This document shows positions 11,443 to 47,041 of a stretch of 64,000 nt of DNA, piece after piece. The notes beneath the pieces were generated by a model. The model was given only the letters and a program-made list of their open reading frames with translations, ran no database searches and had not been told where the DNA came from. The stretch lies in NCBI GenBank assembly GCA_035495615.1, contig DATJFP010000041.1, positions 857 through 64,856 on the forward strand. The letters are read 5' to 3'. The stretch comes from Verrucomicrobiia bacterium. GTDB lineage: Bacteria; Omnitrophota; Omnitrophia; Omnitrophales; Aquincolibacteriaceae. Position 1 is the stretch's first letter, and every line of letters starts with the position of its first letter. The position numbers were made by a program, and so were the translations under genes.

Positions 11443-12753
11443 TTACTGCCCGGGCATCGACAATTCGGCATAAGGGCTGTCGTCCGTATTTGGATCCGGC
11501 GCTTTTTCCACCTTTTCCTTAGGCGGGGCGGCAGGCCGGCTTTTTTGCTTCATGATTTTTTCGATCCGCTTGCGCGTCGAAGGATGCTGAAAGGACATTT
11601 TGGCTTTGATCAAGAACGGAGAAAAGTCGTAATACTCCTCGTATAAATAAGGCTCCAGGTAAGAAACAAAAACCGCCCTTTCCACCCGCTCGTCCTCGTT
11701 TTGCGCGGCCGCGGTGAATTTATCCACGGCACGCTGGAGAAAATCCGCTTTCCAGCGCGGAAAAAAATCGCTTTCGACGACCGAGGGTTCGTGGATGAAG
11801 ACTTGCGTCTGGCTCGATTTCGGAGCGTCCTTGTAAGCGATCAGCAGCGTGAAGATGGTCCGGAATTTTCCGGAAGGCAGCGCGGCAGTCGCCACGTAAT
11901 ATTCGATTTTCGCGAGCGGAACACGGCGTCCCGCGGCATCGATGTCGCTCAAACCAAACGAGGTGCCCTGGATGCGCTCGGGAACCGGGAATTCGCGGCC
12001 CTCTTCGGATTCGCTGACGATGTTCAACTCTTCGTCCCTGCGGTAATCTTCCTGGCGCACGGTCATTGCCGTTTTGGAAGATCCGCGGGCCTTGCGCGCG
12101 GAAGGCGCGGACACGGCGGCGGATTGTTTTGCCCTGTCTTCCGCGGCATCTTTATCGATCATGGCCTTGATGACCGCCGGCAGCTCCCGCAGGGTTTTTT
12201 CCACGTAACGTGACGAAAATTCAACGAGTGCCTGCGCGAAATCGCCGCCGTACTGCGCTTCGAGAGCGAAAAACTGGCCCCGGACCAGCGACGAGAAACG
12301 GTCGCGGAAATTGCGCACGAAAACCGGATCAAAGGCGAAATCGCCGCTTCCGACCGTGGTCGACATCCTCAGACTTTTCGTGCCGCCGTCCGGCATGCGC
12401 AGGGTAATAGATACGCGCACTTCGTAAAATCCCTGTTTGAACGGCTTGAGCACGACCTCCGAATCGAAATGGCCGAGGTTCAAGGCCGTACCGTCGGGAT
12501 TGAGCCCGCTTTTGATCTTGGCGGAGATCTGGGAAGACCCGGTGGTGACGATTTCCCGGGCTTTCAAAAGCGGCGCGCCGTCCGGGACAAGAAGGCCGGC
12601 CTGCGGCAGGGCGCGGACGGACATTTGGTATTCCGAAGGGCTGTTGTGGATGTCGATGGCAGTCAGCCTCGAGTCTTCGGCATGCGCGGAAACCGCAGCC
12701 GAAAAAATCAAAATGGCAGCCATCCAGATTTTTTTTTGAGCCATTGTTTTCAT
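11443..12753 (-). CDS. secreted hypothetical protein (436 aa)
   Basis: Signal peptide MKTMAQKKIWMAAILIFSAAVSAHA. No recognisable domain by eye. Confidence 0.55.
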   Translation of the reverse strand: MKTMAQKKIWMAAILIFSAAVSAHAEDSRLTAIDIHNSPSEYQMSVRALPQAGLLVPDGAPLLKAREIVTTGSSQISAKIKSGLNPDGTALNLGHFDSEVVLKPFKQGFYEVRVSITLRMPDGGTKSLRMSTTVGSGDFAFDPVFVRNFRDRFSSLVRGQFFALEAQYGGDFAQALVEFSSRYVEKTLRELPAVIKAMIDKDAAEDRAKQSAAVSAPSARKARGSSKTAMTVRQEDYRRDEELNIVSESEEGREFPVPERIQGTSFGLSDIDAAGRRVPLAKIEYYVATAALPSGKFRTIFTLLIAYKDAPKSSQTQVFIHEPSVVESDFFPRWKADFLQRAVDKFTAAAQNEDERVERAVFVSYLEPYLYEEYYDFSPFLIKAKMSFQHPSTRKRIEKIMKQKSRPAAPPKEKVEKAPDPNTDDSPYAELSMPGQ

Positions 12754-12839
12754 GGGAAGCCTGTTAGGGGCTGGCGGATTATACTATGCCTGACTCAAAA
12801 TCCCAAGGTCCCGGACCTTGAAATCTCCGCATCTTTCTA

Positions 12840-12866
12840 TTGCTCCGAATCGTTTTCAGGTATAAT
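12840..12866 (+). promoter_or_regulatory. candidate promoter for the exbB operon (TTGCTC-15 nt-TATAAT)
   Basis: A perfect -10 TATAAT at 12861-12866 lies about 34 nt upstream of the exbB ATG. The -35 is weak. Confidence 0.35.
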
Positions 12867-12899
12867 ACGGGCGCCTTTCGAAAAAAAGAGGGAGAACCC

Positions 12900-13604
12900 A
12901 TGAAGATCTTGTCTTACCTTACTCTCTTCGGCATTTTTTTGGAAAAAAACGCCTGGGCTGCGGAAGCTCAGAGCTCCCATTCGGGCATGACGCTCTGGCA
13001 GACCCTCCAGTCGGGCGGCGTGGTGATGGTCATTCTCGGGATTCTGTCCCTGATCATCCTTTCCCTCATGATTTTCCTGCTTCTTTACCTGGATCCGCTC
13101 AAGCTCGTGCCTTCGGAGCTCACGCACAAATGCCTCCAATACGTGACCCAGAAAAAATACGATCTCGCGCGCAAGGCCATTTCCGGCAACGAGAGCCTGG
13201 TCAAAAACATCATCCTGGCCGGCCTGGACCGGGTGAACCTCGGCGAAGAGGCGGTGCATGAAACCGTGGAGCTGACCGCCCGCAAAGAAGTAACGACCTT
13301 GTGGAGCTTCCTCAACTACATTTCCGACATCGGGCAGGTCGCGCCCATGCTGGGACTGCTCGGCAACGTGCTGGGCATGATCCGCGCTTTCAATAACGTG
13401 GCCTTCGAAACCGGCGTCGTCAAGCCCATCGCGCTTGCCGGCGGCGTGGCCGAAGCCATGATCACGACCGCGGGCGGACTTTCCATCGGCATTCTGGCCA
13501 TGATCATCTACCCTATCATCCGCGCGCGCGTGCAGAACATCACGAACCTTCTCGAAACCGAAACCTCCGTCATCCTCAAGGCCTTCAGCCATGGCACGGC
13601 TTGA
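12900..13604 (+). CDS. exbB: MotA/TolQ/ExbB proton-channel family protein
   Basis: Three TM helices with a conserved C-terminal region GGVAEAMITTAGGLSIGILAMI typical of ExbB/TolQ. RBS AGAGGGAG precedes the ATG at 12900. Confidence 0.85.
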   Translation: MKILSYLTLFGIFLEKNAWAAEAQSSHSGMTLWQTLQSGGVVMVILGILSLIILSLMIFLLLYLDPLKLVPSELTHKCLQYVTQKKYDLARKAISGNESLVKNIILAGLDRVNLGEEAVHETVELTARKEVTTLWSFLNYISDIGQVAPMLGLLGNVLGMIRAFNNVAFETGVVKPIALAGGVAEAMITTAGGLSIGILAMIIYPIIRARVQNITNLLETETSVILKAFSHGTA

Positions 13605-14019
13605 TCCCCCGGAATACAGCAAACGCCCCCCGACGATCCAGATCGCCCCGCTGGTCGATATCGCCTTCATCACGCTCATTTTCTTCATGACCATGTCGGT
13701 CTTCAACCAGCTCGAGAACGAGCTGTCGATCAATGTCCCCAAAGCCAAAGAGTCGAAAGAAATGGAGCGCACCCCGGGCGAGATTGTGATCAACGTCGAC
13801 CGCGAAGGTGCCGTCGTCGTGAACCAGAAGAAATTCGACCCCGCGGAACTGGAGCAGATGCTCAAACGCCTTTCCTCGCTGTACCCCAATCAGCCCGTCA
13901 TCATCCGGGCCGATGCCAAGACCACCCACGAGCATGTCATCCGCGTCCTCGACGCCTGCGCCGGCGCCGGCATCTGGAACATTGCTTTTGCGACTTCAAA
14001 AGAAGAAAAAACTTCTTAA
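13591..14019 (+). CDS. exbD: ExbD/TolR family biopolymer transport protein
   Basis: IAPLVDIAFITLIFFM is a single TM helix with the conserved Asp, followed by a periplasmic domain. It overlaps exbB by 14 nt. Confidence 0.85.
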   Translation: MARLDPPEYSKRPPTIQIAPLVDIAFITLIFFMTMSVFNQLENELSINVPKAKESKEMERTPGEIVINVDREGAVVVNQKKFDPAELEQMLKRLSSLYPNQPVIIRADAKTTHEHVIRVLDACAGAGIWNIAFATSKEEKTS

Positions 14020-14029: not shown

Positions 14030-16381
14030 ATGAGAATCCGCATTTCCCTTCTCTGTGGCCTGTTGTGTGCCTTGTCTCTGTCCATGCTTCCCGCGGTTCG
14101 GGCCGAAGAGCCGGCCGCGGCTCCGGCACCGGCGGCCTCCGGCATCGATGACCGGTTCGATTTCGCCGATGGCCTTTACGCCCGCAACATGTACGACATG
14201 GCTGCCACCGAATATCAGAACCTTATAAAGGAAGCGCCGGATCATCCCCGCACGCGCGATGCCTCTTACAGGCTGGCCGAGTCGTATTTCTTCCTGAAGC
14301 AATACGACAAGGCCATGGCCGGATACCAGGCTTGGCTTGCGAAATTTCCGTCTGAGGCCCAGGCTGACAGCGCGAAGCTCCGCATCGCGGAAAGCCTTTA
14401 CTATCAAGGTAAAACTGACGAAGCCCTGGCCCAATTCGGAACCATGGCCGGAAGCCCGAAGCCGCTGGTCAAAAGCGCCGCCCATTATTATCTCGGTAAA
14501 ATCCTGCTGGAAACCGGACGCGAGGCGGAAGCCAAGCCGCATTTCGAGGCGCTTCGCGAACCCGGGCCGGACAATGGCTTTTCCGAAATCGCCGTGTACC
14601 ACCTGGGCCAGATCGCCTTGAAAGACAAGGATTACAAAACCGCGGCGGACGAATTCAAAAAACTCGGATCGAGCGAAAAGGCGGATTTAAAAGAGCTGGC
14701 CGCCTTCGGCCTCGGTCAGGTCTCGTTTCTCTCCGGCGATTACGAACAGGCCCGTCAGGCTTTTCTGCAGACGTTCCAGCTTTCCAAAAAGCCCGAAGTC
14801 CGCCAGGAAGCGCTTTTGAATGCCGCGAAATCGCTTTTCGAACTCAAGCAGTATTCCGGCATCCTCGATCTGATGAAGCCCGAAAATCTGCAGGGACTTC
14901 CGAACGCGGCTCCCCTGAAAATGATGGCGGCCACGGCGCGTTTCGAATTGGGGCAATTCAATGAAGCGCTCGCGCTTTATGACGAAATCCTGGTCCTCCC
15001 GGGAATTACGGCCCAGGAAAAAGAAGCCGCGGAACTGGGAAAGGTCGAGGCGATCCTCCGCAGCGGCGATGCGGCCAAGGCGCTGGCCGCGGCCCAGGCT
15101 ATGCCGCAGGAGCGTTCCTTTTTCAAAGACCGCTGGACGTACCTCATGGCAGAAGTCATGAAGCAGGCCGGAAAATCCGACGAGGCGCTGAAGCTTCTCG
15201 ATTCCCTGCCCCAGGACACGGATCCGGAATTCCGTTCCCGCGCCGAACTCAACCGCGCGCATATTCTCCTGGATTCGGGGGACTTGAAAGGCGCGCGCGC
15301 GCAGATGGACCAATTCCTGAAGGATCATCCGGATCATCCCCTGGCCAAGCAGACGCTGATGAACCGCATCAGCCTGGACATCAAGCTGGGCGAGCTCCAG
15401 GAGGCGACCAAGAGCTCCGACGCCTTTCTCCAGAAATTCGGCGAGACCCCTGAAGGCAAGCAGGTGCGGTACCAGCTGGCGTCCCTTTATCTCTCGCTCA
15501 AAGATTATCCCGGCGCGTTTTCCGCATATGAAAAGTACCTCCAGCTTTATCCGGACGACGAAAAAAAGCACGAGGCACTTTTCTACATGGGCTACGCGAA
15601 GCAGCTCGCGGGCGACATTCAAAAGGCCGTGGAGTATTACACCCAGGTGCAGCAGGGAAAATTGCGGGAGGATCTGTACGCGGGCGCTTTAAAAAATCTC
15701 GCTTACTGTTACGTACGCCTCGAAAAATGGGACGCCGCGGCCGCCGCTTACCGCCAGCTGTTGAAATCGGGTTCCGGCAGCGACGTGGGACCGGACATTT
15801 ATCTGTGGCTGGCGGAATATTACCGCTCGCGTCAGGATGGCCCGGCGCTCACTGAAGTCATGGAGTCCTTCAAGTCCTCGCCCAAGGCCGCGGAAAATGC
15901 CGCGGAGGCGGAATACTTTTCGGGCGAGGCCGCGCGTCTTACGAACCAGCCGGACAAGGCGCTCGCGCATTATGATGCTTGCCTTCAGAAAGAATCCCCG
16001 GTGAAGGCCAAGGCGCTTCTCGGAAAAGCCACAGTCATGCTGGACCGGAATGATCCCGCGGCCGCGGTCCCGATTCTAGAAGACGCCATCCGGCAGTCCA
16101 AAGACGACCAGGAAATGAATCTCGAGGCGCGCATGAAGCTGGCTTCGGTTTATAAAATCCAGAGCAACTTCCTCGAGGCGGCCAAGGCTTATCTGGCTGT
16201 CGCCATTCTTTACGATGATCCCGCCTCCACGCCTGACGCCCTGTGGAACGCCGGGGAAAATTTCGAGAAGGCGGAGCATTCCGATGAAGCGCGCAAGGCC
16301 TATCAGGAACTCACGCAGCGTTATCCCAGCCATCCGCTTGCCGCTCAGGCCCAGAGCAAATTGGGAACCTCGCCGTCATGA
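14030..16381 (+). CDS. large secreted TPR-repeat protein (~784 aa)
   Basis: Signal peptide MRIRISLLCGLLCALSLSMLPAVRA followed by TPR-like repeats throughout. The start was set from track ORF 13913 to the internal ATG preceded by AAAGGAAAAAAC. Confidence 0.8.
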   Translation: MRIRISLLCGLLCALSLSMLPAVRAEEPAAAPAPAASGIDDRFDFADGLYARNMYDMAATEYQNLIKEAPDHPRTRDASYRLAESYFFLKQYDKAMAGYQAWLAKFPSEAQADSAKLRIAESLYYQGKTDEALAQFGTMAGSPKPLVKSAAHYYLGKILLETGREAEAKPHFEALREPGPDNGFSEIAVYHLGQIALKDKDYKTAADEFKKLGSSEKADLKELAAFGLGQVSFLSGDYEQARQAFLQTFQLSKKPEVRQEALLNAAKSLFELKQYSGILDLMKPENLQGLPNAAPLKMMAATARFELGQFNEALALYDEILVLPGITAQEKEAAELGKVEAILRSGDAAKALAAAQAMPQERSFFKDRWTYLMAEVMKQAGKSDEALKLLDSLPQDTDPEFRSRAELNRAHILLDSGDLKGARAQMDQFLKDHPDHPLAKQTLMNRISLDIKLGELQEATKSSDAFLQKFGETPEGKQVRYQLASLYLSLKDYPGAFSAYEKYLQLYPDDEKKHEALFYMGYAKQLAGDIQKAVEYYTQVQQGKLREDLYAGALKNLAYCYVRLEKWDAAAAAYRQLLKSGSGSDVGPDIYLWLAEYYRSRQDGPALTEVMESFKSSPKAAENAAEAEYFSGEAARLTNQPDKALAHYDACLQKESPVKAKALLGKATVMLDRNDPAAAVPILEDAIRQSKDDQEMNLEARMKLASVYKIQSNFLEAAKAYLAVAILYDDPASTPDALWNAGENFEKAEHSDEARKAYQELTQRYPSHPLAAQAQSKLGTSPS

Positions 16382-18132: not shown

Positions 18133-19167
18133 TTATTTATCTGGGCGATCATCAAAATAGCTTAAAATAACGCCCTCCAGCCACAAGTCCTGCCTCCAAG
18201 GCCATTTTCCACTCACAAATCCTAAATGACCTCCGCGGGAAACCAGGCAAAGCCGCAGGCTGGCATTGCTCTCGATCGCTTTCAAAGGCAGGTATCGTCC
18301 TTCGAAAAATGGATCGTCCGCAGCATGAATCAAAAGCGTGGGAACGCGAATCGAGTCCAGATAGCGGGCGGAGCTGGACTCCGTCCAATAATGCAGCGCG
18401 CTGTGGAAATGATTCAAGCGCGCGGTCACTTCTTCATCGAATTCGCGAAAAGTCGTGCATTTCAGGACTTTGGCAATATCGATGAGGCCCGGGAAATCTT
18501 TCTCCTTCTCCAGGGACTTGGCCTTGAGCGAACTCAAAAGGCTGCGCGTATAAACGCGGCGGTTGAAACCCTGGTCCATCAATTCCACGGATTTGACGAG
18601 GTCGTATGGTACGGAAACCGCGGCGGCTTTTTTAATTTGGCCGGCGGCGGAGGCTCCCTGCTCCCCCAGCCACTTCAAAACAATGTTGCCGCCGATGGAA
18701 TAGCCGGCGAGATAATAATTTTCCCAGGCGGTCTTTCGCAGGAGATGCTGGACCACCCAGTCGAGATCGTCAGTTTTTCCCGAGTGATACGTCGTGGGCA
18801 GCCGGTTGGGATTTTTTTCAGCGCCCCAATCGTTGAAAAGCCGGCGTCCTTTTCTTTTGACCGCGCTGCATCCCCGGAAATTGACTGCGGCGGCATGCCA
18901 GCCCCTCTTGTGAATCTCACTCAAGAGGCTCCGGACATACGGCGCTTCCGAAGAACCTTCAAGGCCGTGCAGCACGATGACTCCGGGCTTGTCACGCGCG
19001 CCCTCCAGGATTTCGATATCCAGAAAATCACCGTCCGGAGTTTCCAGGCGTTCGAGCGTGAGCTCAAGCGGCGGGGCGGGACGGAAAAAACGGGCGAAGA
19101 TCGTCTGCGCATGCGCGCCGGGGCACCACCATGCAGGCCGGAAAGGACGGGGCTCGAAGCCGGGCAT
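18133..19167 (-). CDS. alpha/beta hydrolase, YheT/ABHD-type
   Basis: PDGDFLDIEI...GVIVLHGLEGSSEAPY...GYSIGGNI matches the YheT-family esterase pattern. Confidence 0.8.
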   Translation of the reverse strand: MPGFEPRPFRPAWWCPGAHAQTIFARFFRPAPPLELTLERLETPDGDFLDIEILEGARDKPGVIVLHGLEGSSEAPYVRSLLSEIHKRGWHAAAVNFRGCSAVKRKGRRLFNDWGAEKNPNRLPTTYHSGKTDDLDWVVQHLLRKTAWENYYLAGYSIGGNIVLKWLGEQGASAAGQIKKAAAVSVPYDLVKSVELMDQGFNRRVYTRSLLSSLKAKSLEKEKDFPGLIDIAKVLKCTTFREFDEEVTARLNHFHSALHYWTESSSARYLDSIRVPTLLIHAADDPFFEGRYLPLKAIESNASLRLCLVSRGGHLGFVSGKWPWRQDLWLEGVILSYFDDRPDK

Positions 19168-23460: not shown

Positions 23461-24707
23461 TTCCGCTTCGCTCCGTATTTCCGCGCCAGGCCCTGCGCCA
23501 CGGCCACGCCGCTCGACCAAGCCCACTGGAAATTAAAGCCGCCGATACGCCCGTCTACGTCCAGGATCTCGCCTGCGAAAAAAAGCCCGGGCACGAGCCG
23601 GGATTCCAGCGTCTTGGAATCCACTTCGTCAAAGCCGACGCCGCCCGCCGTGACTTCCGCTTTTTTGTAACCCAGGGAACCGCTGACCCGAAGCGGCTGC
23701 GCGAGCAGCGCCGCGATCAGCTTGTCCCGATCCTCGCGTTTGGTCTGGCCGAGCGCGGCGTCTTCGGAAAAACGGTTTTTGCGCAGGAAGATTTCGACGA
23801 ACCTTTCGGGCAAGGCCTCGGAGAGAAAGTTTTTGACGCGCTTGGTGGGCGAGCGCTCGGCCGCGCGCACCCATTTGTCCCGGAGTTTCTCGCGGTCCAG
23901 AGACGGAAGAAAGTTCGCGCTCATCTCGGCCTTGGAATTGTCTTCCAGCCGGATCCAGTGACGGCTCATGTCGAGGACGACCGGACCGCTGAAGCCGAAA
24001 TGCGTGAAGAGAAAATCGCCTTCGTACTCGGCCAGGCTTTTGCCTTCGTGCCGCAGCTCCAGCCGGCAAGGCAGCGCCACTCCGGAAAGTTTTTTCCAAT
24101 CGGGATCGTCTGTCAGAAGCGGTGTGAGCGACGGCGTGGTCGCAACAAGACTATGCCCAAGCGATTGGGCCACCCCATAACCCGTTCCGTCGCTGCCTGT
24201 CGACGGAAACGAAAGCCCGCCCGTGCACAGCACCACGGCCTTGGCGGCGTATGAAAAACCTTCGCCCCTGATTTCAAAGCCCGCGGCGGTTTTGCTCACT
24301 GCTTTCACTTTCCGCGGCGTTTTGAGTTCGACGCCCTCTTCGCGCATTTTTCGGACCAGCGCGTCCAGCACGGTTTTCGCCTCGTGCGTGGCCGGGAAAT
24401 ATTTGCCGCCGGGTTCGAGCACGAGATCCACGCCCAGCGTTTTAAAAAATGCCGCGGCCTTGTCCGACGGAAAAGCGGCCAGGACGTTTTTGACCGCGCG
24501 CAGATTTCCGCCGTTAAAATCTTTTTCCGTGACCTTGTGATTGGTGACGTTGCAGCGCGTGCCGCCCGACATGAGGATTTTGGCGCCGATCACTTCGCGG
24601 CCATCGAGGAGAAGGACCTTCGGGAAAAAGGGCTTGGCGGCGATGGCCGTCATGAGGCCTGCGGCACCTGCGCCGATGATGGCGACGTCATAGACGGGAA
24701 CGGTCAT
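23457..24707 (-). CDS. NAD(P)/FAD-dependent oxidoreductase, HI0933/BaiN family
   Basis: YDVAIIGAGAAGLMTAIAA is a dinucleotide-binding GxGxxG. GGTRCNVTN and the C-terminal GEILDVDGRIGGFNFQWAWSSG are typical of this family. Confidence 0.8.
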   Translation of the reverse strand: MTVPVYDVAIIGAGAAGLMTAIAAKPFFPKVLLLDGREVIGAKILMSGGTRCNVTNHKVTEKDFNGGNLRAVKNVLAAFPSDKAAAFFKTLGVDLVLEPGGKYFPATHEAKTVLDALVRKMREEGVELKTPRKVKAVSKTAAGFEIRGEGFSYAAKAVVLCTGGLSFPSTGSDGTGYGVAQSLGHSLVATTPSLTPLLTDDPDWKKLSGVALPCRLELRHEGKSLAEYEGDFLFTHFGFSGPVVLDMSRHWIRLEDNSKAEMSANFLPSLDREKLRDKWVRAAERSPTKRVKNFLSEALPERFVEIFLRKNRFSEDAALGQTKREDRDKLIAALLAQPLRVSGSLGYKKAEVTAGGVGFDEVDSKTLESRLVPGLFFAGEILDVDGRIGGFNFQWAWSSGVAVAQGLARKYGAKRN

Positions 24708-25228
24708 TGTTTCTCGTTCAATTCATGCACGATGACTTCAGATTCGATCTTGGAGTCTTCGCGGTCGGACTTTTGCGCGTGAAGCGCGGCTTCGATCGTG
24801 CCTGTCGCCACGCCAACGCCGGCCACGCCGTATCCCAGGCCTCCGGCCCCCGCGCCAGCGCCTGCCGCGGCCGCGGGAGCAATCGGCGCGAGCGTGCCTG
24901 CCAGGACTCCAGCCGTTGCCAACCCGGCCGCGAAATAATAAACCTTCCGGCGGTCACTGTATGGCCCGTCGTAAGGAATCTCCCCCCTTTTAGCATTGGG
25001 ATCCAGCATACGGTAATCGGGCCGCGAAAACTTTGCCGGGCTGCCATGAAACGGAAAGCCTGCATTCGGGTTTCGCGCGTCCACGACGCTGACAAAAGAT
25101 TTCCCGGTTTTCGGATTCTCGCGCACAACAACGGTTGTGCCTGTTTTCGGGACAACTTCCGACTGTTCCGCGAAAACCGGGGCCTGGAAGGCCATGATTA
25201 AAATCAGCGGAAGAACGATTGTCTTCAT
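24704..25228 (-). CDS. secreted protein with a Gly/Ala-rich C-terminal segment
   Basis: Signal peptide MKTIVLPLILIMAFQAPVFA followed by an AAAGAGAGAGGLGYGVAGVGVATG low-complexity segment. Confidence 0.5.
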   Translation of the reverse strand: MKTIVLPLILIMAFQAPVFAEQSEVVPKTGTTVVVRENPKTGKSFVSVVDARNPNAGFPFHGSPAKFSRPDYRMLDPNAKRGEIPYDGPYSDRRKVYYFAAGLATAGVLAGTLAPIAPAAAAGAGAGAGGLGYGVAGVGVATGTIEAALHAQKSDREDSKIESEVIVHELNEKQ

Positions 25229-25908
25229 ACGCTCGTCTTTCCTTCATGCGCGTTCAAAAAGTCCTGGAGGTATTGGATCGTGACAATGACGTTGTTCTCC
25301 AGCGCCGCATTCAAATTGACTTCGGGGCCGCCTTTTTTGGCAAAGACTTTTTGCGCATCGCTCGAGCCTTTGGCCGTGAAACGCGAAACGAGATTCATGT
25401 TCGTATCGAAAATGCCGTCTTCGGTTTCGTAGACGACCGCCTGGCCTTTCATGGTTTTGTAATTATGAAATTTTCCCAGGTCCACGGCCACAAAGTAAGG
25501 GATCGCGTACTGCCGCAGGATTTCGGGCGTGGGCTCCACTTCCAGATAAATAAATTCTTCGAAGGCCTGCTGGAATCCTTCGACAAGGAGCGGCGTGAGC
25601 GCTTCGCCGATGTGATAATTCTGCGGATCGGAAAAACGAGTGCCCTTATCGGTGGAGATGTAATTCCGCAGGCGCGGGGTTATGTAGAGGCCGACGCGGA
25701 TTTTCGAAGGCGCGACCTGGGTGTAAAAATTCTGGGAGAGAAGGCCCGGGGCGTGGATGTCCCAGCCGAAAAGCCGCGCGCAGCCCGGCAGTAACAGGAG
25801 GCACAGCAAGGCTTTCCGTAAATGCCAAGCGGGGCCGCCGGCCCCTTGAGAAGCGGTTTCGATCACGTTTTCCCTGCTGCGGACGTTGTTAACATCGCTC
25901 ATAATCAC
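25225..25908 (-). CDS. hypothetical lipoprotein
   Basis: Lipobox-like LLLLPGC. The N-terminal extent is uncertain. No recognisable family. Confidence 0.45.
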   Translation of the reverse strand: MIMSDVNNVRSRENVIETASQGAGGPAWHLRKALLCLLLLPGCARLFGWDIHAPGLLSQNFYTQVAPSKIRVGLYITPRLRNYISTDKGTRFSDPQNYHIGEALTPLLVEGFQQAFEEFIYLEVEPTPEILRQYAIPYFVAVDLGKFHNYKTMKGQAVVYETEDGIFDTNMNLVSRFTAKGSSDAQKVFAKKGGPEVNLNAALENNVIVTIQYLQDFLNAHEGKTSV

Positions 25909-26035
25909 GATTTACGCCCGGCCGCGATTTGTATAGAATAGCACAGCTTTCCGGACTTGGAAGAAAAACAAGCCCCCCTGTTTGGCATCCGCGGTCAAGC
26001 TCCGAAGCACATTGGGATCTTCCCAAGGAAATCCT

Positions 26036-29000
26036 ATGGACATGGAAAAAGCGCTGGGTTGGCGCACGGAAAAATCGGGTTCTGCCGTTCAGAACGAAAA
26101 GTTAATCCAGTACATTAACTTGAAGCTGGCGGCCATGGGCTACCCTGTGTACGGCAGCAAAACCGATTCGGAATTTCTCGAGATCGCGCAGCCGCTGCTC
26201 AGCAATTACCAGGAAAAAAGCCGCATCCTCTCCAGCTTCCTTTGCCCGGCCGACCGCAGGATCCAGGACTTCCTCGACGATTATCTCAAAGACGTGGCGC
26301 CGGAAAAGCCCATCCGGCTGCCGGTCAATACGTTCATCCTGGACCGTCATGGGCTGGCACGCACGATGTCGCTGCCTCCCAATAAAGACAGCTTTGAATC
26401 CGACATCGTCAGCTCCTACCGGGTCAAGCAGGGCGTCCTTCACAATCCCAAAAGCGACCGGCGCACCACGCAGGGCGTTTTCCACATCGCCGAAGGCGGC
26501 TTCGCGATTCCCGACGACAAGACCGCGGTACCGAAGCTGGTGTTTGCCAACCTCCTGGCCGAAGCGCTGCGTCCGCCGCAGGACCTGCTGCGTCTGCCGT
26601 TTACTTCGGCGCAGAACGAACAGGCCGAGCTTTTTATTTCCCTGCTGCTGCGCCCGCTCGTCTGTCCCGCCGTGCACGGACGGATTCCGGAAAAAACCAT
26701 GGAGATCCGCTTCTTCGCGCCGGGCAATCTCGTGAGCAATCTGGACTTCGTCGAATCCATATTCGGAAACGCAGGCGACCCTTATCTCCCGGAAAACGAC
26801 GCGGCGCTTGACGCCTGGCACTGGACCGGCCACACCGGCTGCGTGATCCTCGCGCCGCACATGATCCACCTGAAAAAGAAAGACCTCGGGCTCCCCCATT
26901 ACGACCAGGCCACAGAACGCCAGCGGCGCGACCGCATGTGCTGGAAAAAAGAAAACGAGCCTTACAATGACGGTGACGCGTTCAAGATCACCTGCCGCGA
27001 CGAGCGCGGGATCATGGTCACGCTGATCGCGGACAATTATTTCGGGTACTGCAAAAAAGAGGTCAAAACACAGATCAGCTTTTCTTCCAATCTCTACGGC
27101 CTTTCCGAAGAAGAGCACGCCGGCGGCGCCATCGCTTTTCCCAGCTACGATCTCGGCGAAGAATTCTCCCTGGACCCCGCGATCTCGAGCAATGCCCTGA
27201 AATTCGCGGACGTCGTGCGCCTTTACGGTTCTTTCATGGACGTGAAGCCTGAGGGCTATGCCGTGGACAAAAAATACCCGCAGATCATTTACGTGCCCGA
27301 AGGCGCGGTCTTCAATCTCCAGCAGCAGTCGGTCACCTGGACCGTGGACGGCCGGGAACAAAAAATCCGCCTGATCGCGTCCAACCTCTACATGCTTCCT
27401 TCCGGGTATAAGATCCACATCAAGAAGCTGACCGGCGGGCACAACTGGATCCTGATCGGGACCGTGGCCGAGGGCACAACGTGCCACAAGCCGTGCACGG
27501 TGTCCGGCGGCGGCAAATCCGAAATTTCCAAATCCATCGTGGACGCCATGATCCAGGGGCCGATGTTTACCGCGGATTTTCACAAAGACTTCGAGCTCGT
27601 CGCCGAAATCATCGAGCGCGATTTCGGCAGCCGCTTCAAAGAAAAGTACATGAAAAAGCGCCCGAGCCGCCCGATCCTCAGCTCCAAACGCTCGCTGGGC
27701 TCGGTCATCAAGCTCTTCACGCCTTCGGCGGAATTCACGGACGAATACAACGACTGGCTGAAGTCCCTGCCGCCGCACATCAAGGACGTGATCTTCATCG
27801 TCAAGCGCCATTACCGCCGCCACTGGGGCAAGAACTGGCGCGAGCATTTCAGCGTGGACGTGGTCAACGGGCATCTCGGCCACGAGCTCAAATACGCGGG
27901 CCGCGAGCTCGTCTCCAATTACCTGCGCGTGGGCCGTGAAAAAGACGGCTCCTGGCGCATCTACCGCGTGCGCCAGGATTTCAGCCCGGCGCAAAAAGTC
28001 CAGACCGAAGACGACATCTCTACTTCCGTCGTCGTTCCCGGCGAGCACGTTTCCCCGGACCTTGCGGCTTCCGCCAAAAGCGTGAAGCTCGTCGCCAACT
28101 GCGAATACCGCCTCTTTCAAAGGCCCGACGACGCCATCCACCGCGGCTACGACAAACAGGCGGAACTGGATCTCGCCACGCCGGGGACATTCCTTTCCAA
28201 TTACGAGCCGCTCACCGCGAGCGACGCAAAAGAGCTGCTGCTGGATGCCATGGGCTTTGATCTCTACACGCCGCCGATGAAAAACCTGATCCAGGACTTC
28301 GTGGAAAAAGGCAGCCCGACTTATTTCGTGGCTTCCTCGCACCCTCGCGTCGTGGACGGCAAGCCTTCAAAAAATCCGCGCTATCTGCAGAACCGGCCGG
28401 ATCTGGTCAATCCCGTGCAGCGCTACTTCGCGGAAATGGGCGTGCGCCTCTGGCGCAAAATCCCCGAAGGGCAGCCGGTGCAGTTCACGGTAAACGCCGT
28501 GCTGCCGGGCCGCAGGAACAACCCGCGGGATGCCAAGAACAAAATCCCAGCGCTGGCTGTTTACAATCCGATCCATTACCAGGAACTGCCGGAACTCTTC
28601 ATGGATTTCGTCTGCAGCGTCACAGGAAAATCACCGTCCACGACGGGTTTCGGCTCCGAAGGCGCGCTGACGAAGGGCCCCTTCAACGCACTTTGCGCCA
28701 CGGCCGACCTGAACAACGCGCTTGTGTCCTACATCCTGACGGGCTATGCCGCCTTCTCTTCCGCTGCCGGCTATGTGGGCCCGAACTTCCAGGTAGACCA
28801 CGACGTCACGCTTCTCATCCCCGAGGTCTGGTCGCGCATGGCCGTGCATGAACGGGATCCGGAATTCCTGATCAAGAACCGGTATCTCGAAAAGCTGGAG
28901 GATTTTGAACATGAAGGGCGTGTGGTCAAAGCGAGCATCTTGGGCTACAGGATCACGCTCAAATTCATCCACGCATTTCTCGGCCGGATTTTCAGCAACC

Positions 29001-29536
29001 CGAATGCCGTCTTCCACGAAGAAATGCTCAAGCCCGAACAGCAGGACATGAGCATGTTCGCCGAAGGCATCGACAATCTCGTGGCCACGCAGAAAAGAGT
29101 CGCCCAGCATTATTTCAACGACGGCAGCATCGAGTCCGCGTGCCCGCCGCTCGCGGCGCTTCTTCACATCATGGCCCACGGCCATTATAATGGTAAAGAC
29201 CTCAATCATCCGGAAGTGAGGGGCATGTTCACGCACGATTACCTGATCGCGAGCCCATGGTACCAGGAAAGGCTGGCCATGAAGCAGCACCGGGAAGTCG
29301 CGCTATGGCAGCGGCACATCGCGTATCTCGAAAACTTTGTCTCCAAAGACAGCCATTACGAAGCCATTCAGGAGCTGCGGCTCAAAGAACGCCTCGAAGA
29401 AGCGCAGCGGCATCTTGAAATTGTGAAATCGCCTGCTTATCTCAAAATTCTGCACGGCACTATCGGTGCTGATCCTCTGCGGGGGCAGTTCCATGCATCC
29501 CGGCCGAATGTCAGTCTCGCCAAAGAACGAGTCTAA
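26036..29536 (+). CDS. very large conserved-looking cytoplasmic protein of unknown function (1166 aa)
   Basis: A single uninterrupted ORF with good codon usage, no signal peptide and no TM segment. RBS AAGGAAATCCT precedes the ATG at 26036. I recognise no catalytic motif apart from a P-loop-like SGGGKS near aa 490. Confidence 0.6.
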   Translation: MDMEKALGWRTEKSGSAVQNEKLIQYINLKLAAMGYPVYGSKTDSEFLEIAQPLLSNYQEKSRILSSFLCPADRRIQDFLDDYLKDVAPEKPIRLPVNTFILDRHGLARTMSLPPNKDSFESDIVSSYRVKQGVLHNPKSDRRTTQGVFHIAEGGFAIPDDKTAVPKLVFANLLAEALRPPQDLLRLPFTSAQNEQAELFISLLLRPLVCPAVHGRIPEKTMEIRFFAPGNLVSNLDFVESIFGNAGDPYLPENDAALDAWHWTGHTGCVILAPHMIHLKKKDLGLPHYDQATERQRRDRMCWKKENEPYNDGDAFKITCRDERGIMVTLIADNYFGYCKKEVKTQISFSSNLYGLSEEEHAGGAIAFPSYDLGEEFSLDPAISSNALKFADVVRLYGSFMDVKPEGYAVDKKYPQIIYVPEGAVFNLQQQSVTWTVDGREQKIRLIASNLYMLPSGYKIHIKKLTGGHNWILIGTVAEGTTCHKPCTVSGGGKSEISKSIVDAMIQGPMFTADFHKDFELVAEIIERDFGSRFKEKYMKKRPSRPILSSKRSLGSVIKLFTPSAEFTDEYNDWLKSLPPHIKDVIFIVKRHYRRHWGKNWREHFSVDVVNGHLGHELKYAGRELVSNYLRVGREKDGSWRIYRVRQDFSPAQKVQTEDDISTSVVVPGEHVSPDLAASAKSVKLVANCEYRLFQRPDDAIHRGYDKQAELDLATPGTFLSNYEPLTASDAKELLLDAMGFDLYTPPMKNLIQDFVEKGSPTYFVASSHPRVVDGKPSKNPRYLQNRPDLVNPVQRYFAEMGVRLWRKIPEGQPVQFTVNAVLPGRRNNPRDAKNKIPALAVYNPIHYQELPELFMDFVCSVTGKSPSTTGFGSEGALTKGPFNALCATADLNNALVSYILTGYAAFSSAAGYVGPNFQVDHDVTLLIPEVWSRMAVHERDPEFLIKNRYLEKLEDFEHEGRVVKASILGYRITLKFIHAFLGRIFSNPNAVFHEEMLKPEQQDMSMFAEGIDNLVATQKRVAQHYFNDGSIESACPPLAALLHIMAHGHYNGKDLNHPEVRGMFTHDYLIASPWYQERLAMKQHREVALWQRHIAYLENFVSKDSHYEAIQELRLKERLEEAQRHLEIVKSPAYLKILHGTIGADPLRGQFHASRPNVSLAKERV

Positions 29537-31195: not shown

Positions 31196-31753
31196 TCACG
31201 CCTTCGGCAAAATCTTTTCCACGCTTTGCAGGAACTCCGGCGACAGCGGGTCTACTTTCGAGTCGAACCGCGCCACCACGTTTCCCTTGGGATCCACGAG
31301 GAATTTGTTGAAGTTCCACGTGATGGGACCCTTGAAATCCGTGGCCGTCGTGAGATAGCGGTAAAGCGGGTGCATGGCGTCGCCTTTCACGGGAATCTTG
31401 GAAAAAAGATCGAACGTGACTTTGAAACGCAAGTCACAGAACTTCTTGATTTCCGCGTCCGTGCCCGGCTCCTGTCCCCCGAAATCGTTCGAAGGAAACG
31501 CGAGCACCTTCAGCCCCGCGTCCTTATATTTCTCATACAAGGCTTCCAGCGAAGCGTATTGCGGCGTGTACCCGCACTGGGAAGCGGTATTGACGATGAG
31601 GAGCGCCTTTCCATCATACTGGGCGAGGTCGACCTCCTTGCCGTCAATCGTTTTCGCTTTAAAGTCGTGCACGTTCTGCGGCGCGGCCCCCGCGTTCATG
31701 ACGCCCATGAAGAAAATCGCCCCCATCCAAAGTCCTTTGAGATCCAAGCTCAT
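31196..31753 (-). CDS. gpx: glutathione peroxidase (Cys-type), secreted or membrane-anchored
   Basis: VHDFKAKTIDGKEVDLAQYDGKALLIVNTASQCGYT...FPSNDFGGQEPG is the Gpx signature with a catalytic Cys. There is an N-terminal hydrophobic segment. Confidence 0.85.
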   Translation of the reverse strand: MSLDLKGLWMGAIFFMGVMNAGAAPQNVHDFKAKTIDGKEVDLAQYDGKALLIVNTASQCGYTPQYASLEALYEKYKDAGLKVLAFPSNDFGGQEPGTDAEIKKFCDLRFKVTFDLFSKIPVKGDAMHPLYRYLTTATDFKGPITWNFNKFLVDPKGNVVARFDSKVDPLSPEFLQSVEKILPKA

Positions 31754-39535: not shown

Positions 39536-39607
39536 CTTTTCCCGCGGTTTAGATTAGGGCCGGCTTTGTCGAAATATCATCGGAACGCTGTCAACGCGCA
39601 CTCATCC

Positions 39608-40318
39608 ATGAAAACATCGAAACCCATTTGGTTCCGTTATAAATTCATGCTCCCTGCGGGAAAGACGCAGGAATTCCATCTGGAGCTGGATCCGGAAACG
39701 CTCGCGCTTATCCCCCAACCGCGGACCGATTATCCGGACTGGACGCGGCTGTCTCATTTTCAATGCGCGCATTGCCCGCTCAAAGAGGCGGATTCGCCGC
39801 GTTGTCCGATTGCCGCCAACCTCGTCGACGTCATCGAGTTTTTTAAATCGGCGGTTTCCTACGAGGAAATCGACCTGGAAGTCGAAAGCCCTTCGAGAAC
39901 CTATAAGGCGCGCACCGCCCTTCAGTATGCGCTCAGCTCCCTCATCGGCCTTTACATGGTGACGAGCGGCTGTCCGGTCATGGACAAATTGCGGCCGCTG
40001 GCCGCGTTTCATCTTCCGCTGGCCAGCACCGCGGAATCCACGTTCCGCTCGCTTTCGATGTATCTCCTGGCCCAGTGGTTTCTTCAAAGAAAAGGCGAAA
40101 CGCCGGACTGGTCCTTAAAGGACCTGGAAAAAATCTATGCGGACATCCAGACCCTCAACGAATGGTTCCTCAAAAGGGTCCAGGCCGTGCACATTCAGGA
40201 CGCGGGGCTGAATGCGGTTTTCCATCTGGACTGCCACGCCCAGTACACCAATTTATTCCTGACTGCCGAAGGGCTCGACAACATCGTCCGGTTCTTTCAT
40301 CCTTATTTAAATCCTTGA
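39608..40318 (+). CDS. hypothetical protein (236 aa)
   Basis: ORF with good coding statistics and no recognisable family. Start set at MKTSKPIWF. Confidence 0.5.
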   Translation: MKTSKPIWFRYKFMLPAGKTQEFHLELDPETLALIPQPRTDYPDWTRLSHFQCAHCPLKEADSPRCPIAANLVDVIEFFKSAVSYEEIDLEVESPSRTYKARTALQYALSSLIGLYMVTSGCPVMDKLRPLAAFHLPLASTAESTFRSLSMYLLAQWFLQRKGETPDWSLKDLEKIYADIQTLNEWFLKRVQAVHIQDAGLNAVFHLDCHAQYTNLFLTAEGLDNIVRFFHPYLNP

Positions 40319-40451
40319 TCTTCCGCCGGCTCAAGGCCTTGTTTATTTTTTAGTCAGGGCCGTGTGACAAAAAAATTCAGTCCCGTAGAGCCGTCCCTCA
40401 CGGCGCCCCCGCATCTCCAATAAAAACAATGACTTAAGATCTCGTTTTTCG

Positions 40452-40467
40452 TGGCACGCAATTTGAA
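40452..40467 (+). promoter_or_regulatory. candidate sigma-54 (-24/-12) promoter TGGCACG-N4-TTGAA upstream of hsp20
   Basis: TGGCAC at 40452-40457 and TTGAA at 40463-40467 have the correct spacing, with one mismatch to the TTGCW consensus. It lies 45-60 nt upstream of the hsp20 RBS AAGGAGG. Confidence 0.35.
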
Positions 40468-40512
40468 ATTCGCCTCAGCGGAAAAACATCAATCCAAGAA
40501 GGAGGAAATACC

Positions 40513-40959
40513 ATGGAACTCGTCAGAAAAATAAATGGCTGGGATCCGTTCGACATCCTCGAAGATCTTCAAACGGACATGAACCGTGTTTTCAACCGGT
40601 CTCTCCAGAAGAGAGAGGGTTTGGAGAATGCCTTTCAGCCCCATCTCGAAGTGCGGGAAGATGCGGAAGCCTACATTTTAAGCGCGGATCTGCCCGGCTT
40701 GAAGAAAGAAGACTTTTCCATCACGGTGCAAGGAAACCGTCTGGTCTTGAAAGGAGAAAGGAAACAGGAAAAAGAATTGACGGAAAAAGGAATGCATTAC
40801 TCCGAGAGATCCTACGGCTCCTTCATGCGGAGCATGGAGTTTCCGGTCGAAGTGGCCGCCGACAAAGTCAAGGCGAGTTATAAAGACGGCGTCCTCGAGA
40901 TCAACTTGCCCAAGGCTGAGAATGCCAAGCCCAAGCAAGTGTCGGTTGAAGTGAAATAA
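40513..40959 (+). CDS. hsp20: Hsp20/alpha-crystallin family small heat-shock protein
   Basis: Alpha-crystallin domain (AYILSADLPGLKKEDFSITVQGNRLVLKGERK...GSFMRSMEFP...KASYKDGVLEINLPK). Confidence 0.9.
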   Translation: MELVRKINGWDPFDILEDLQTDMNRVFNRSLQKREGLENAFQPHLEVREDAEAYILSADLPGLKKEDFSITVQGNRLVLKGERKQEKELTEKGMHYSERSYGSFMRSMEFPVEVAADKVKASYKDGVLEINLPKAENAKPKQVSVEVK

Positions 40960-41012
40960 TGTTTCCGGAGCCCGGCGGATTACCGCCGGGCTCCGGTTCC
41001 TGGAGGAATACC

Positions 41013-41738
41013 ATGGAAACGCCTAATACAAATGCTGCTCCTGACAAAACAACGATGCCCGGTTGGGCTGTCGCCATTTTGGTATTGCTCGTGGCTTTGC
41101 TATGCCTTCAGTCCGTGCTTTTGGTGAAGACGATCAAAAACGACAGAGCCATCAGAAGGTTTGCGATTCAGAAACAAGTGTGGGATGCCAATCGAGCCGC
41201 GGCCGCGCTTCCGCAAAGAATGAACAGGCAAAGCTCCGCCGCTTATCAGCCTCTCCCAAACCGCTTTTACGGGCCGAGCCCTTACGGTTCTTACAGCGCT
41301 TCTCAGTTGGAAGACAGCATGAATCGGCTTTTCACAAATCTTCTGTCCAATTTTGCAGCGCCCTTATCGAGCATGATGGCAAGCCCGGCCGCGGCAGACT
41401 TTGATTTCATGCCTACCGCAGACATGGAAGAAAAAGACAATCTTTATATTGTGAAAGTGGACCTGCCCGGCTTGGACAAGGACCAGATCAACATCACGGT
41501 GAGAGACGGCTTGCTCACCATCGAAGGCGTTAGGAAATCTGAGTCCGAATCCAAAGACGACAAGACCGGATTTTATTCCCAGGAGCGCAGCTATGGATCG
41601 TTTTCCAGATCACTTCCGCTTCCCGGCCCTGTGGATGATGCCGGAATCAAGGCGGATTATGCCAATGGAGTTCTGACGATCCAGCTCCCCAAGAAGCCGG
41701 GAACCGAAAAAAATGCGACGAAGGTAAGCGTGCAGTGA
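41013..41738 (+). CDS. membrane-anchored Hsp20 family protein
   Basis: An N-terminal TM helix (GWAVAILVLLVALLCLQSVLLV) and a ~90-aa linker precede a canonical alpha-crystallin domain (LYIVKVDLPGLDKDQINITVRDGLLTIEG...GSFSRSLPLP...ADYANGVLTIQLPKK). RBS GGAGGA. Confidence 0.8.
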   Translation: METPNTNAAPDKTTMPGWAVAILVLLVALLCLQSVLLVKTIKNDRAIRRFAIQKQVWDANRAAAALPQRMNRQSSAAYQPLPNRFYGPSPYGSYSASQLEDSMNRLFTNLLSNFAAPLSSMMASPAAADFDFMPTADMEEKDNLYIVKVDLPGLDKDQINITVRDGLLTIEGVRKSESESKDDKTGFYSQERSYGSFSRSLPLPGPVDDAGIKADYANGVLTIQLPKKPGTEKNATKVSVQ

Positions 41739-41805: not shown

Positions 41806-43989
41806 TTACTTGATGAACAGCATCTCCTGGTACGTCGGAAGCGTCCAGAGATCATCCGCCACAAGCGTTTCCAGCTGGTCCGCGTATTTCCGGACCGTCC
41901 CCATCGCGGGAAGAACTTTGTAGCAGTAATACTCCGCTTCGGCTTCCAGGCTCTTGGCGCCGTGGTGTTCCTTGAGCTTCTCCAGAGCGCTGATGCTGCT
42001 CTGCAGGCCCTTCACGGCGGCCACAACCTCATCCAGCGTCGTGCTGTCGAACTTCACGCCGGCGGTTTTAGCAGCGGCCGCGGCCTGACAGAGTTCGGTC
42101 TGATAGCGGACAGCCGCAGGAAGGATCATGGTCTGGGCCATCTTCACGACGAGGTTGGATTCCAGGTTGATCGTCTTGCAGTACTGTTCCACGTAAATAT
42201 CGTGGCGGCTTTCGAGCTCGCGCTTCGAGAGCACCTTGTACTTGGCAAAAAGATCAGCGGCTTCCTTGGTCTTGGCGGCCTTGATCGCCTCGACCGTGGT
42301 CTTATCGTTCGGAAGACCGCGCTTGGCGGCTTCCTTGTGCCACGCTTCGGAATAGCCGTCGCCGTTGAAAACGACAGCGCCGTGTTCATCGATGATTTCC
42401 TTGAGCAGCTTCTGCACGGCGGCATTCAGCTTCTTGGAATCACCTTTGGTGGCCTTCTCGAGTTCCGTCGCAACGTAATCGAGGGAATCGGTGAGGGCCG
42501 TGAGAAGCATGACCAGCGGACCGGCCAGCGACATGCTGGAACCGACCGCGCGGAACTCAAACCTGTTGCCGGTGAAGGCAAACGGGCTGGTGCGGTTACG
42601 GTCGCCGGCATCCGAGGGAAGCGGCGGCAGCGTGTCGACGCCGACCACGAGCTTGTCTTTCTTCTTGGACGACTTGGCTCCGCCCTTCTTGATCTGATCG
42701 AACACGTCGGCAAGCTGCTCGCCGAGGAAGATCGAGATGATCGCCGGAGGAGCTTCGTTCGCGCCGAGGCGGTGGTCGTTATTGGCCGTGGCGACGGAAG
42801 CGCGCAACAGGTACGAATACTTGTGGACCGCGCGGATCGTGGCGGCGCAGAAAACGAGGAACTGCGCGTTTTCGTGCGGCGTCTCGCCCGGATCGAACAG
42901 GTTACCCTGCGTGCTGTTGCTGATCGAGAAATTCAGGTGCTTGCCCGAGCCGTTGATGCCCGCGAAAGGCTTCTCGTGCAGGAGGCAGGTCATGCCGTAC
43001 TTCTCGGCGACACGCTTCAGGGTATACATGAGGAGCTGCTGGTGGTCCGTGGCGATGTTCGCGCTCTCGTACAGAGGGGCGATTTCGTACTGGGCCGGAG
43101 CAACTTCGTTGTGGCGGGTCTTCACCGGGACGCCGAGCTTGAAGAGCTCACGCTCGCATTCGAGCATGAACGCAAGCACGCGTTCGGGAATCGCGCCGAA
43201 ATAGTGGTCTTCGAATTCCTGGCCGCGCGGCGGCTTGGCGCCGAAGAGCGAACGGCCGCAATTCAGAAGGTCCGGACGGGCGTAGTAGAAATTGCGGTCG
43301 ATCAGGAAGTATTCCTGCTCGGGACCCGCGTTCGCCACGACACGGGAAATCGCCGTGTGGCCGAACAGGCGCAGGATGCGCTGCGCGTGAACATTCATGG
43401 CCTGCTGGGCGCGGAGAAGCGGCGTCTTCTTGTCGAGCGCTTCGCCGGTCCAGGACACGAACGCCGTCGGAATGCAAAGCGTCGTCCCATTCGGATTTTC
43501 GAGGATGTACGCCGGGCTCGTCACGTCCCAAGCCGTATAACCGCGGGCTTCGAACGTCGCGCGGATGCCGCCGCTCGGAAAGCTGGAGGCATCGGGTTCC
43601 CCCTGGATAAGCTGCTTGCCCGTGAATTCCGCGATCGCCGAACCGTCACCCGTCGGCGTGAGGAAGCTGTCATGCTTCTCGGCCGTGGAGCCGGTCAAAG
43701 GATAGAAAACGTGGGCGTAATGCGTGGCGCCCTTTTCGATGGCCCAATCGCGCATGGCCGCAGCCACAACGTCCGCGATCGTGGAATCGATCTTCTCACC
43801 CTTCTCGATCGTCTTCATCAGAGAAATGTAGATGTCTTTAGGCAGCCGGGCCTTCATGACCGACGGACTAAAAACATTCGTTCCAAACAAACTCCCCGTC
43901 GAAGTCTCCGCGAAATTCAGAGGCTCCGAAATGGGCTCGTAACCGGTAACGGCCTTAACAGCCTGTAGACGTGCAGTACTTCCGCTCAT
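41806..43989 (-). CDS. glnN: glutamine synthetase type III (GlnN)
   Basis: 727 aa, GSIII size. The N-terminal MSGS...FGTNVFS...[10 protein letters not shown] and internal GS catalytic-domain motifs (e.g. [10 protein letters not shown]) are present. Confidence 0.9.
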
Positions 43990-44277: not shown

Positions 44278-44438
44278 AAAAAAATGGAATGAGTCCATCT
44301 GCTACGCCTGCGAGATTAGCTCCCCTGGGTTCGGACTGCAGATTATAGCCCGTCTGCCTCGCGGCAAATTCACCCGTAACTGGTTCTCCCGCTCCCCGGA
44401 TGGGAATTAGGCGGCACTTCCGGATACGTTGCCCAGGC

Positions 44439-46443: not shown

Positions 46444-46486
46444 GCGAGATTTTCCTCCGCCGGCAGTTAGGGTGCGGGTGATCGAC

Positions 46487-47041
46487 TCAGAAAAAAATGA
46501 ACGTGACTCCCATGAAAATAAAAATCCAGCCGGCCGCTTTGCGCAGGATGGCCGGACGGACGCGCGAAGCCATGGCATGCCCCAGGAACAGGGCAATGCC
46601 TGAAGACAGCGCCAGGGCCGACAGGGTCGCGAGCACGACAAGCGCAAGATTGTACCGCGTGGCAAAAAGCGCGGCGGCGATTTGCGTCTTGTCCGCCCAT
46701 TCCGCCAGGAACGTGAATCCGAAACCCATCAAAAAGGGATGCTGGAAGAGAAATTCCTGCTGCGGTTCCGACTCGCCCACCGAGCGCAGCATGAGGAACC
46801 CGAAGACAAAGAAAATAACCGCGGCCAGGAGTTTCATGATCCACACCGGCACAAACCGCGAGATCCACGCTCCAGCAAAGATGCCGAAGCCGTCGGCCAG
46901 CATGAAGCCGAGCATGGCTCCAAAAAAAAGGACAAGCCGCTTCTGGGTTTTCGAACCCAGCACGAAAAGCGCGAGCTGGGTCTTGTCGCCCAGTTCCGCG
47001 AGGAAAATGGAAATAAACGGAATGATGAAATGAACCAGCAT
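46487..47041 (-). CDS. GDT1/TMEM165 (UPF0016) family cation transporter
   Basis: Two copies of the signature E-x-G-D-(KR)-(TS): ELGDKTQLALFVL and EWADKTQIAAALFA. Confidence 0.8.
   Translation of the reverse strand: MLVHFIIPFISIFLAELGDKTQLALFVLGSKTQKRLVLFFGAMLGFMLADGFGIFAGAWISRFVPVWIMKLLAAVIFFVFGFLMLRSVGESEPQQEFLFQHPFLMGFGFTFLAEWADKTQIAAALFATRYNLALVVLATLSALALSSGIALFLGHAMASRVRPAILRKAAGWIFIFMGVTFIFF

Follow-up and report, generated by a model that had tools for sequence, protein, structure and literature searches.

What does a 1166-residue protein do when no familiar domain can be recognized in it? This question is raised by a gene on contig DATJFP010000041.1 (assembly GCA_035495615.1, Verrucomicrobiia bacterium), located at positions 26036–29536 on the forward (+) strand of the 64,000-nucleotide stretch analysed here, which we call the window. 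The original prediction, made from the sequence alone, had described the product as an orphan without a recognizable family and had offered pyrophosphate (PPi)-dependent phosphoenolpyruvate carboxykinase (PEPCK) as a guess from size and context. The guess was borne out, and the orphan status was not: the gene very probably encodes an ortholog of PPi-dependent PEPCK (PPi-PEPCK; phosphoenolpyruvate (PEP) carboxytransphosphorylase, EC 4.1.1.38). The enzyme class is already known, and the window protein is a new, uncharacterized member of it.

A phmmer search with the 1166-residue protein against all chains in the PDB returned two matches, both with E = 0. One was 6K31_A, "AiPEPCK" from Actinomyces israelii (1249 bits, query residues 26–1147 versus chain residues 19–1150), and the other was 8E1U_A, "PPi-dependent PEPCK" from Propionibacterium freudenreichii (1236 bits, 17–1147 versus 3–1128). 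Those portions of both chains that phmmer had aligned were rebuilt from its output and then compared by BLASTP. The window protein was 52.0% identical to 6K31 over 1139 columns with 26 gap positions and 50.3% identical to 8E1U over approximately 1138 columns with 19 gap positions, and no large insertions or deletions relative to either chain were found; the two crystallized enzymes are 61.8% identical to one another. The sizes also match, the crystallized chains having 1131 (8E1U) and 1153 (6K31) residues and the window protein a mass of 132 kDa. Confident full-length matches to a well-characterized family are what the original prediction had itself named as the evidence that would overturn the orphan assignment.

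Structural comparison led to the same enzymes. An AlphaFold2 monomer model was built on a 44-sequence alignment, with a mean predicted local distance difference test score (pLDDT) of 83.4 and a predicted template-modelling score (pTM) of 0.83. The Foldseek search with this model against the PDB, a check that the original prediction had proposed, found eight chains of 8E1U (TM-scores TMq/TMt of about 0.91/0.95) and two chains of 6K31 (0.88/0.93). The superposition of the model on 8E1U and 6K31 spans about 1141 columns and displays the multi-lobe architecture of PPi-PEPCK. One further significant match was the ATP-dependent PEPCK 1YLH from Actinobacillus succinogenes (E = 8e-5, TMt 0.59), below which the Foldseek search of the PDB gave only noise. 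Together with the conservation analysis described below, these comparisons show full-length orthology, the same fold as both crystallized enzymes, and complete conservation of the invariant family motifs. Full-length homology, fold, a size of ~130 kDa (1100–1200 residues), the invariant motifs, and the Pfam family PF26300 all place the protein among the PPi-PEPCKs.

The protein looked like an orphan because PPi-PEPCK had no InterPro family (PMC8100219), the local Pfam and NCBIfam scans were empty, and the identical database protein is labelled "hypothetical protein VL688_05725" at NCBI. The local Pfam-A scan returned no family at E ≤ 1, and the NCBIfam scan gave nothing meaningful, its single line (MotB, E = 0.21) being noise. 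To this extent the earlier statement that there are no recognizable domains held; it did not hold for the precomputed records, in which PF26300 (PEPCK_PPi_lobe_2) is assigned to the identical protein and to all 120 homologs listed in our protein search. The precomputed assignment and the empty hmmscan are discrepant, and the local Pfam-A copy is presumably older than the PF26300 model. Some of the homologs are named "phosphoenolpyruvate carboxykinase (diphosphate)" or "PPi-type phosphoenolpyruvate carboxykinase". The empty domain scans reflect absent models, not an absent family, and what they reveal is an annotation gap, not biological novelty. The 132-kDa "hypothetical protein" of this Verrucomicrobiae metagenome-assembled genome can be named PPi-PEPCK (EC 4.1.1.38) with confidence, and many homologs labelled hypothetical at NCBI are open to the same correction. 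The gene itself brings no new biology, and its main value lies in correcting the annotation. A link between PEP and oxaloacetate, together with a source or sink of PPi, is lost from metabolic reconstructions that depend on the local Pfam and NCBIfam copies, because these fail to detect PPi-PEPCK.

The family proved to be widespread. A word-indexed protein search scored at least 8000 candidates, all with E ≤ 1e-10, of which 120 were listed. Among the matches listed, 119 of the 120 homologs are 1117–1186 residues long, with identities of 61–74%, and many of them lie on contigs of tens of kilobases to megabases. An exhaustive search of 50%-identity representatives yielded 2769 clusters at E ≤ 1e-3, of which 777 reached E ≤ 1e-30; the full-length representatives extend down to about 35% identity. 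Many of the relatives found among these representatives are short (200–900 residues) and look like fragments, perhaps because the genes run off the ends of short metagenomic contigs. With regard to the phyletic distribution, which the original prediction had recommended checking, tblastn confirmed at least 592 loci in species-representative genomes across many phyla. Judged by record title, these include Verrucomicrobiota, Acidobacteriota, Bacteroidota, Planctomycetota, and Elusimicrobiota, and further matching genomes are of Ignavibacteria type (Melioribacter), Abditibacterium, Lentisphaerales, several Proteobacteria, and others. According to PMC8100219, the family occurs in a restricted yet varied set of bacterial and unicellular eukaryotic lineages and is not found in archaea.

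Conservation was evaluated in 46 sequences: the 44-sequence alignment (the window protein and its 43 nearest relatives), 6K31, and 8E1U. Invariant columns number 220 of 1166, and every candidate catalytic motif is among them. The order and intra-motif spacing of the motifs are the same as in the active site of E. coli PckA, whose positions were checked in its sequence and whose residues R65, Y207, K212/K213, H232, P-loop, and D268/D269 we take to be the active-site residues. The motifs are listed below.

26456..26470, + strand: D141-R-R143-T-T145 loop, with D141, R143, T144, and T145 invariant; putative substrate-binding Arg loop, from the alignment and the colinearity of R143 with E. coli PckA R65 (GRSPKDK).
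27038..27067, + strand: Y335-F-G-Y-C-K340-K341-E-V-K344, invariant except F336; putative Mn2+/substrate Lys pair, Y335-x4-K340-K341 having the spacing of E. coli PckA Y207-GGEM-K212-K213.
27107..27118, + strand: E358-E-E-H361, invariant; H361, 20 residues past K341, is the putative metal-ligand His, by comparison with E. coli PckA H232, 19 residues past K213.
27497..27532, + strand: T488-V-S-G-G-G-K494-S-E-I-S-K499, a 12-residue invariant run forming a P-loop (kinase-1a-like) phosphate-binding loop; S490-G-G-G-K494-S495 corresponds to S250-G-T-G-K254-T255 of E. coli PckA.
28010..28018, + strand: D659-D660-I661, invariant; by motif order, the putative equivalent of the metal-binding D268-D269 (IGDDEH) of E. 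coli PckA.
28622..28684, + strand: T863-GKSPSTTGFGSEGALTKGP-F883, a Gly/Ser/Thr-rich loop, mostly invariant, with pLDDT <50 over residues 863–883.

The last loop, within which T863-GKSP867, T869-TG871, and E875-GALTK880 are invariant runs, may be a mobile active-site lid or a PPi-contacting loop. Further invariant runs are I331-ADNY335, G337-YCKKEVK344, F694-QRPD698, R782-YLQ785, and H922-D923. Three of the five low-pLDDT segments of the model (144–147, 487–493, and 863–883) fall on invariant loops, and we interpret these segments as probable mobile active-site elements, by analogy with the R-loop, P-loop, and lid of nucleotide-dependent PEPCKs. The original prediction had flagged three motifs by eye: SGGGKSEISKS (residue 490), DNYFGYCKKE (residue 333), and AFPSYDLGEEF (residue 367). 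The former two turned out to be invariant family motifs, of which the first appears to correspond to the P-loop of the nucleotide-dependent PEPCKs and the second to their Tyr/Lys-Lys motif; the third is not conserved in 6K31 or 8E1U.

The protein is predicted to catalyse the reversible reaction PEP + CO2 + Pi <-> oxaloacetate + PPi (Pi, phosphate) at the PEP-pyruvate-oxaloacetate node, with PPi/Pi replacing ATP/ADP or GTP/GDP. Catalysis would proceed along the general PEPCK scheme. The Arg loop (R143) and Tyr335 would hold oxaloacetate or PEP, K341, H361, and D660 would bind the catalytic divalent metal that stabilizes the enolate, and the P-loop S490–S495, with K494, would position the phosphoryl donor, in this case PPi. 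The extra lobes, which make the protein approximately twice the size of the ~540-residue ATP enzyme, probably correspond to two large insertions and a C-terminal helical region. The insertions would be located between H361 and the P-loop, where the gap is 133 residues as against 22 in E. coli PckA, and between the P-loop and D659/D660, where it is 166 residues as against 15. The physiological direction could be either anaplerotic PEP carboxylation yielding PPi or gluconeogenic decarboxylation consuming PPi. We regard it as rather unlikely that PPi-PEPCK is the sole or main PEP/oxaloacetate enzyme of a soil or sediment Verrucomicrobiae lineage with a PPi-economizing metabolism and lineage-specific regulation. 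Such regulation, if true, could depart from that of the actinobacterial enzymes, for example, in the activating metal or in lacking the malate allosteric site.

Several observations weigh against the assignment as PPi-PEPCK. Identity to the characterized enzymes is 50–52%, and the assignment was made by sequence and model; at this level of identity the metal preference, the regulation, or even the phosphoryl donor might have shifted. The proposed residue roles depend on motif colinearity and on the literature on E. coli PckA, and an hhalign comparison of the family alignment with E. coli PckA, in which SGGGKSE was placed on SGTGKTT, was not significant (probability 1.1%). Moreover, Pfam scans of 40 window ORFs (open reading frames) found no PPi-PFK, PPDK, H+-PPase, or other enzyme of the node, so the co-occurrence with glycolytic or PPi-metabolism genes that the original prediction had suggested looking for was not observed among these ORFs. 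An identity of just 50% to a biochemically studied enzyme would also suit a functionally diverged paralog that has the PPi-PEPCK fold and catalyses a different reaction, for instance on a different 2-oxoacid or with a changed phosphoryl donor or acceptor, and family representatives at about 32–35% identity indicate some internal diversity. We consider such a paralog improbable. The candidate catalytic and phosphate-binding motifs are strictly invariant in the window protein, its 43 nearest relatives, and both crystallized enzymes, no large insertions or deletions occur, and the TM-score is 0.9 or higher across the whole chain. In addition, one copy was found at each homolog locus examined, which is what an ortholog, not a diverged paralog, would lead one to expect.

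Two more radical readings deserve hardly any credence. The empty local Pfam-A and NCBIfam scans and the name "hypothetical protein" would be expected of a true orphan, with a fold and a function that have no known counterpart, but a protein with E = 0 matches to two solved and named enzymes, at least 8000 homologs, at least 592 loci, and PF26300 on record hardly fits that description; the PDB matches, the identity of 50–52%, and the fold superposition refute it. Equally, the many relatives of 200–900 residues and a 746-residue antisense ORF nested inside the gene might suggest that the long ORF arose artefactually from two genes, through misassembly, a frameshift, or a fusion. However, the crystallized proteins of 1131 and 1153 residues align with the product end to end, and 119 of the 120 listed homologs have a similar length (1117–1186 residues). 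Furthermore, each of the best 80 of the at least 592 genomic matches is one unbroken tblastn segment; almost all of these begin within the first ~70 query residues and run to about query residue 1127–1166. Because the homologs are nearly all 1117–1186 residues long and the genomic matches are single and continuous, we see no frameshift, fusion, or split gene. Homologs divided into two genes, a finding that the original prediction had listed as a possible refutation, were not seen, the homologs being single-gene and full-length. The homolog lengths, the PDB alignments, and the continuous genomic matches refute the artefact, and PPi-PEPCK is retained as the identity of the product.

The gene lies in a single unbroken + strand ORF, 25982 (TTG)..29536 in the window ORF list. 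The start codon ATG at 26036 gives a product of 1166 residues (132 kDa) plus the stop. The N-termini of the homologs line up on the Met encoded at 26036, and M1 is nearly invariant in the family alignment. The features of the gene are as follows.

26036..29536, + strand: coding sequence of the very probable PPi-dependent phosphoenolpyruvate carboxykinase (EC 4.1.1.38 family), from the ORF, the E = 0 full-length PDB matches, and model TM-scores of 0.88–0.95.
26025..26031, + strand: Shine-Dalgarno-like AAGGAAA, 6 nucleotides from AGGA to ATG, by direct reading of the sequence.
25911..25939, + strand: candidate sigma-70-like promoter TTTACG-17-TAGAAT, 9/12, ~95 nucleotides 5' of the ATG, by consensus match.

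Promoter-like sites in the region numbered five as against 2.4 ± 1.8 in shuffles, which gives weak support for the candidate at 25911..25939. The frame is uninterrupted, in agreement with the earlier description of a single clean ORF with a good ribosome-binding site. That description had also denied the product a transmembrane segment, a signal peptide, and repeats, and here too it was accurate. The protein has no transmembrane segment because its highest Kyte-Doolittle mean over 19-residue windows is 1.42, below the usual threshold of 1.6; its N-terminus is hydrophilic, and a self-BLAST found no internal repeats. The antisense 746-residue ORF (26102–28342, − strand) is nested entirely within the gene, whose + strand has a GC content at third codon positions (GC3) of 0.76. 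A shadow ORF of a GC3-rich gene is the most likely explanation for it, because the homology evidence is confined to the + strand and because of this GC3.

Upstream, the − strand carries two small ORFs without a Pfam match and an HI0933-like flavoprotein gene. The ORF at 24704–25228 (−) opens with a signal-like hydrophobic stretch, and that at 25225–25908 (−) contains a hydrophobic segment with Cys at its end. Downstream, a + strand gene for an Exo_endo_phos protein with a hydrophobic N-terminus starts at 29576, 40 nucleotides past the stop, and is followed by a glutathione peroxidase gene and then by a response-regulator/histidine-kinase cluster. A search for consensus matches found no terminator-like site between the stop and the next gene, and the two genes are possibly co-transcribed. 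The best sigma-70-like match of the region (TTCACA-17-TATAAT, 11/12) is at 29163–29191 (+), within the PPi-PEPCK coding sequence at its 3' end; lying ~385 nucleotides 5' of the Exo_endo_phos start, it could be an internal promoter for that gene. The gene appears to stand alone because two homologs, one 72% and the other 62% identical, have neighbourhoods that differ from that in the window. The earlier view that the secreted or lipoprotein-like neighbours and the EEP hydrolase offer no operon clue is consistent with these unconserved neighbourhoods and with the lack of PPi genes among the 40 ORFs. Loose synteny with the contig of the 72%-identical homolog was seen, in that Abhydrolase_1 and glutathione peroxidase genes occur within ~7 kb of the PPi-PEPCK gene in both (window 18133–19167 (−) and 31196–31753 (−); homolog contig 14227–15841), with different immediate neighbours.

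Elsewhere in the window, the c-di-AMP riboswitch model RF00379 was matched over its full length (67 bits) at 58604–58735 (−), directly 5' of a Glyco_transf_20 ORF (trehalose-6-phosphate synthase type) at 57070–58551 (−). With this arrangement, c-di-AMP would control the production of trehalose, an osmolyte. A second RF00379 match (57 bits) is at 44290–44423 (−), ~300 nucleotides 5' of a type III glutamine synthetase ORF at 41806–43989 (−); to our knowledge, glutamine synthetase is an unusual gene downstream of a c-di-AMP riboswitch. In the region 39566–41738 (+), the gene for a DUF6901 protein (E = 7e-75) precedes a tandem pair of HSP20 small heat-shock genes; the latter gene of the pair has an N-terminal extension of ~150 residues without a Pfam match. 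At 48422–53670 (+), genes for a sulfate/molybdate-type ABC transporter come after a Porin_O_P (phosphate-selective porin) gene; they encode SBP_bac_11, a permease, and a CysA-like ATPase that includes a TOBE domain. The low-GC stretch 1–2000 (GC 0.447) and the stretch 46467–47586, whose ORFs have a GC3 of 0.47–0.50 as against ~0.7 elsewhere, could be foreign or non-coding DNA. Three ORFs of 436, 350, and 573 residues, at 11443–13889 (−) and 60685–62406 (+), had no Pfam match at E ≤ 1e-5, and the GC3 of the 573-residue ORF, 0.57, is atypically low.

The enzyme class to which the window protein is assigned has been known biochemically since the 1960s, and its genes were identified in 2015 (PMC8100219, PMC10441589). 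The PPi-PEPCK structures were released in the PDB in 2019 and 2023. The A. israelii enzyme (6K31; 52.0% identity, TM 0.88/0.93) differs from the window protein by small insertions and deletions only (26 gap positions). The P. freudenreichii enzyme (8E1U, malate complex) has 1131 residues as against 1166, is 50.3% identical end to end, and has the invariant motifs in common with the window protein, whereas it comes from Actinomycetota instead of Verrucomicrobiota, about half of the residues differ, and AFPSYDLGEEF is not conserved. The 2023 structure paper on this enzyme reportedly describes activation by Fe2+ and an allosteric malate site. PPi-PEPCK1-3 of Entamoeba histolytica, the genes that led to the identification of the family according to the citation of Chiba et al. 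2015 in PMC8100219, belong to the same family by the literature. In the part of PMC10441589 that cites Chiba 2019, PPi-PEPCK is described as homodimeric, and the three PEPCK classes are said to have a common tertiary structure with undetectable sequence similarity, a statement with which the Foldseek result is in accord.

The window protein falls outside the ATP and GTP PEPCK families, as no match to Pfam PEPCK_ATP or PEPCK_GTP was obtained at E ≤ 1 and hhalign gave the above-mentioned probability of 1.1% against PckA. The nucleotide-dependent enzymes (E. coli PckA, 1YLH, and the animal GTP-dependent cPEPCK) nevertheless have, by family, the same chemistry and occupy the same metabolic node. 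A structural core is common to the window protein and the ATP-PEPCK 1YLH (E = 8e-5, TMt 0.59), and the motifs R, Y-x4-KK, H, S-G-x-G-K-S/T, and DD are colinear in the window protein and the nucleotide PEPCKs. The window protein differs from them in being approximately twice as large, owing in part to insertions about 110 and 150 residues long, and, according to the family literature, PPi-PEPCKs use PPi/Pi where the nucleotide PEPCKs use a nucleotide.

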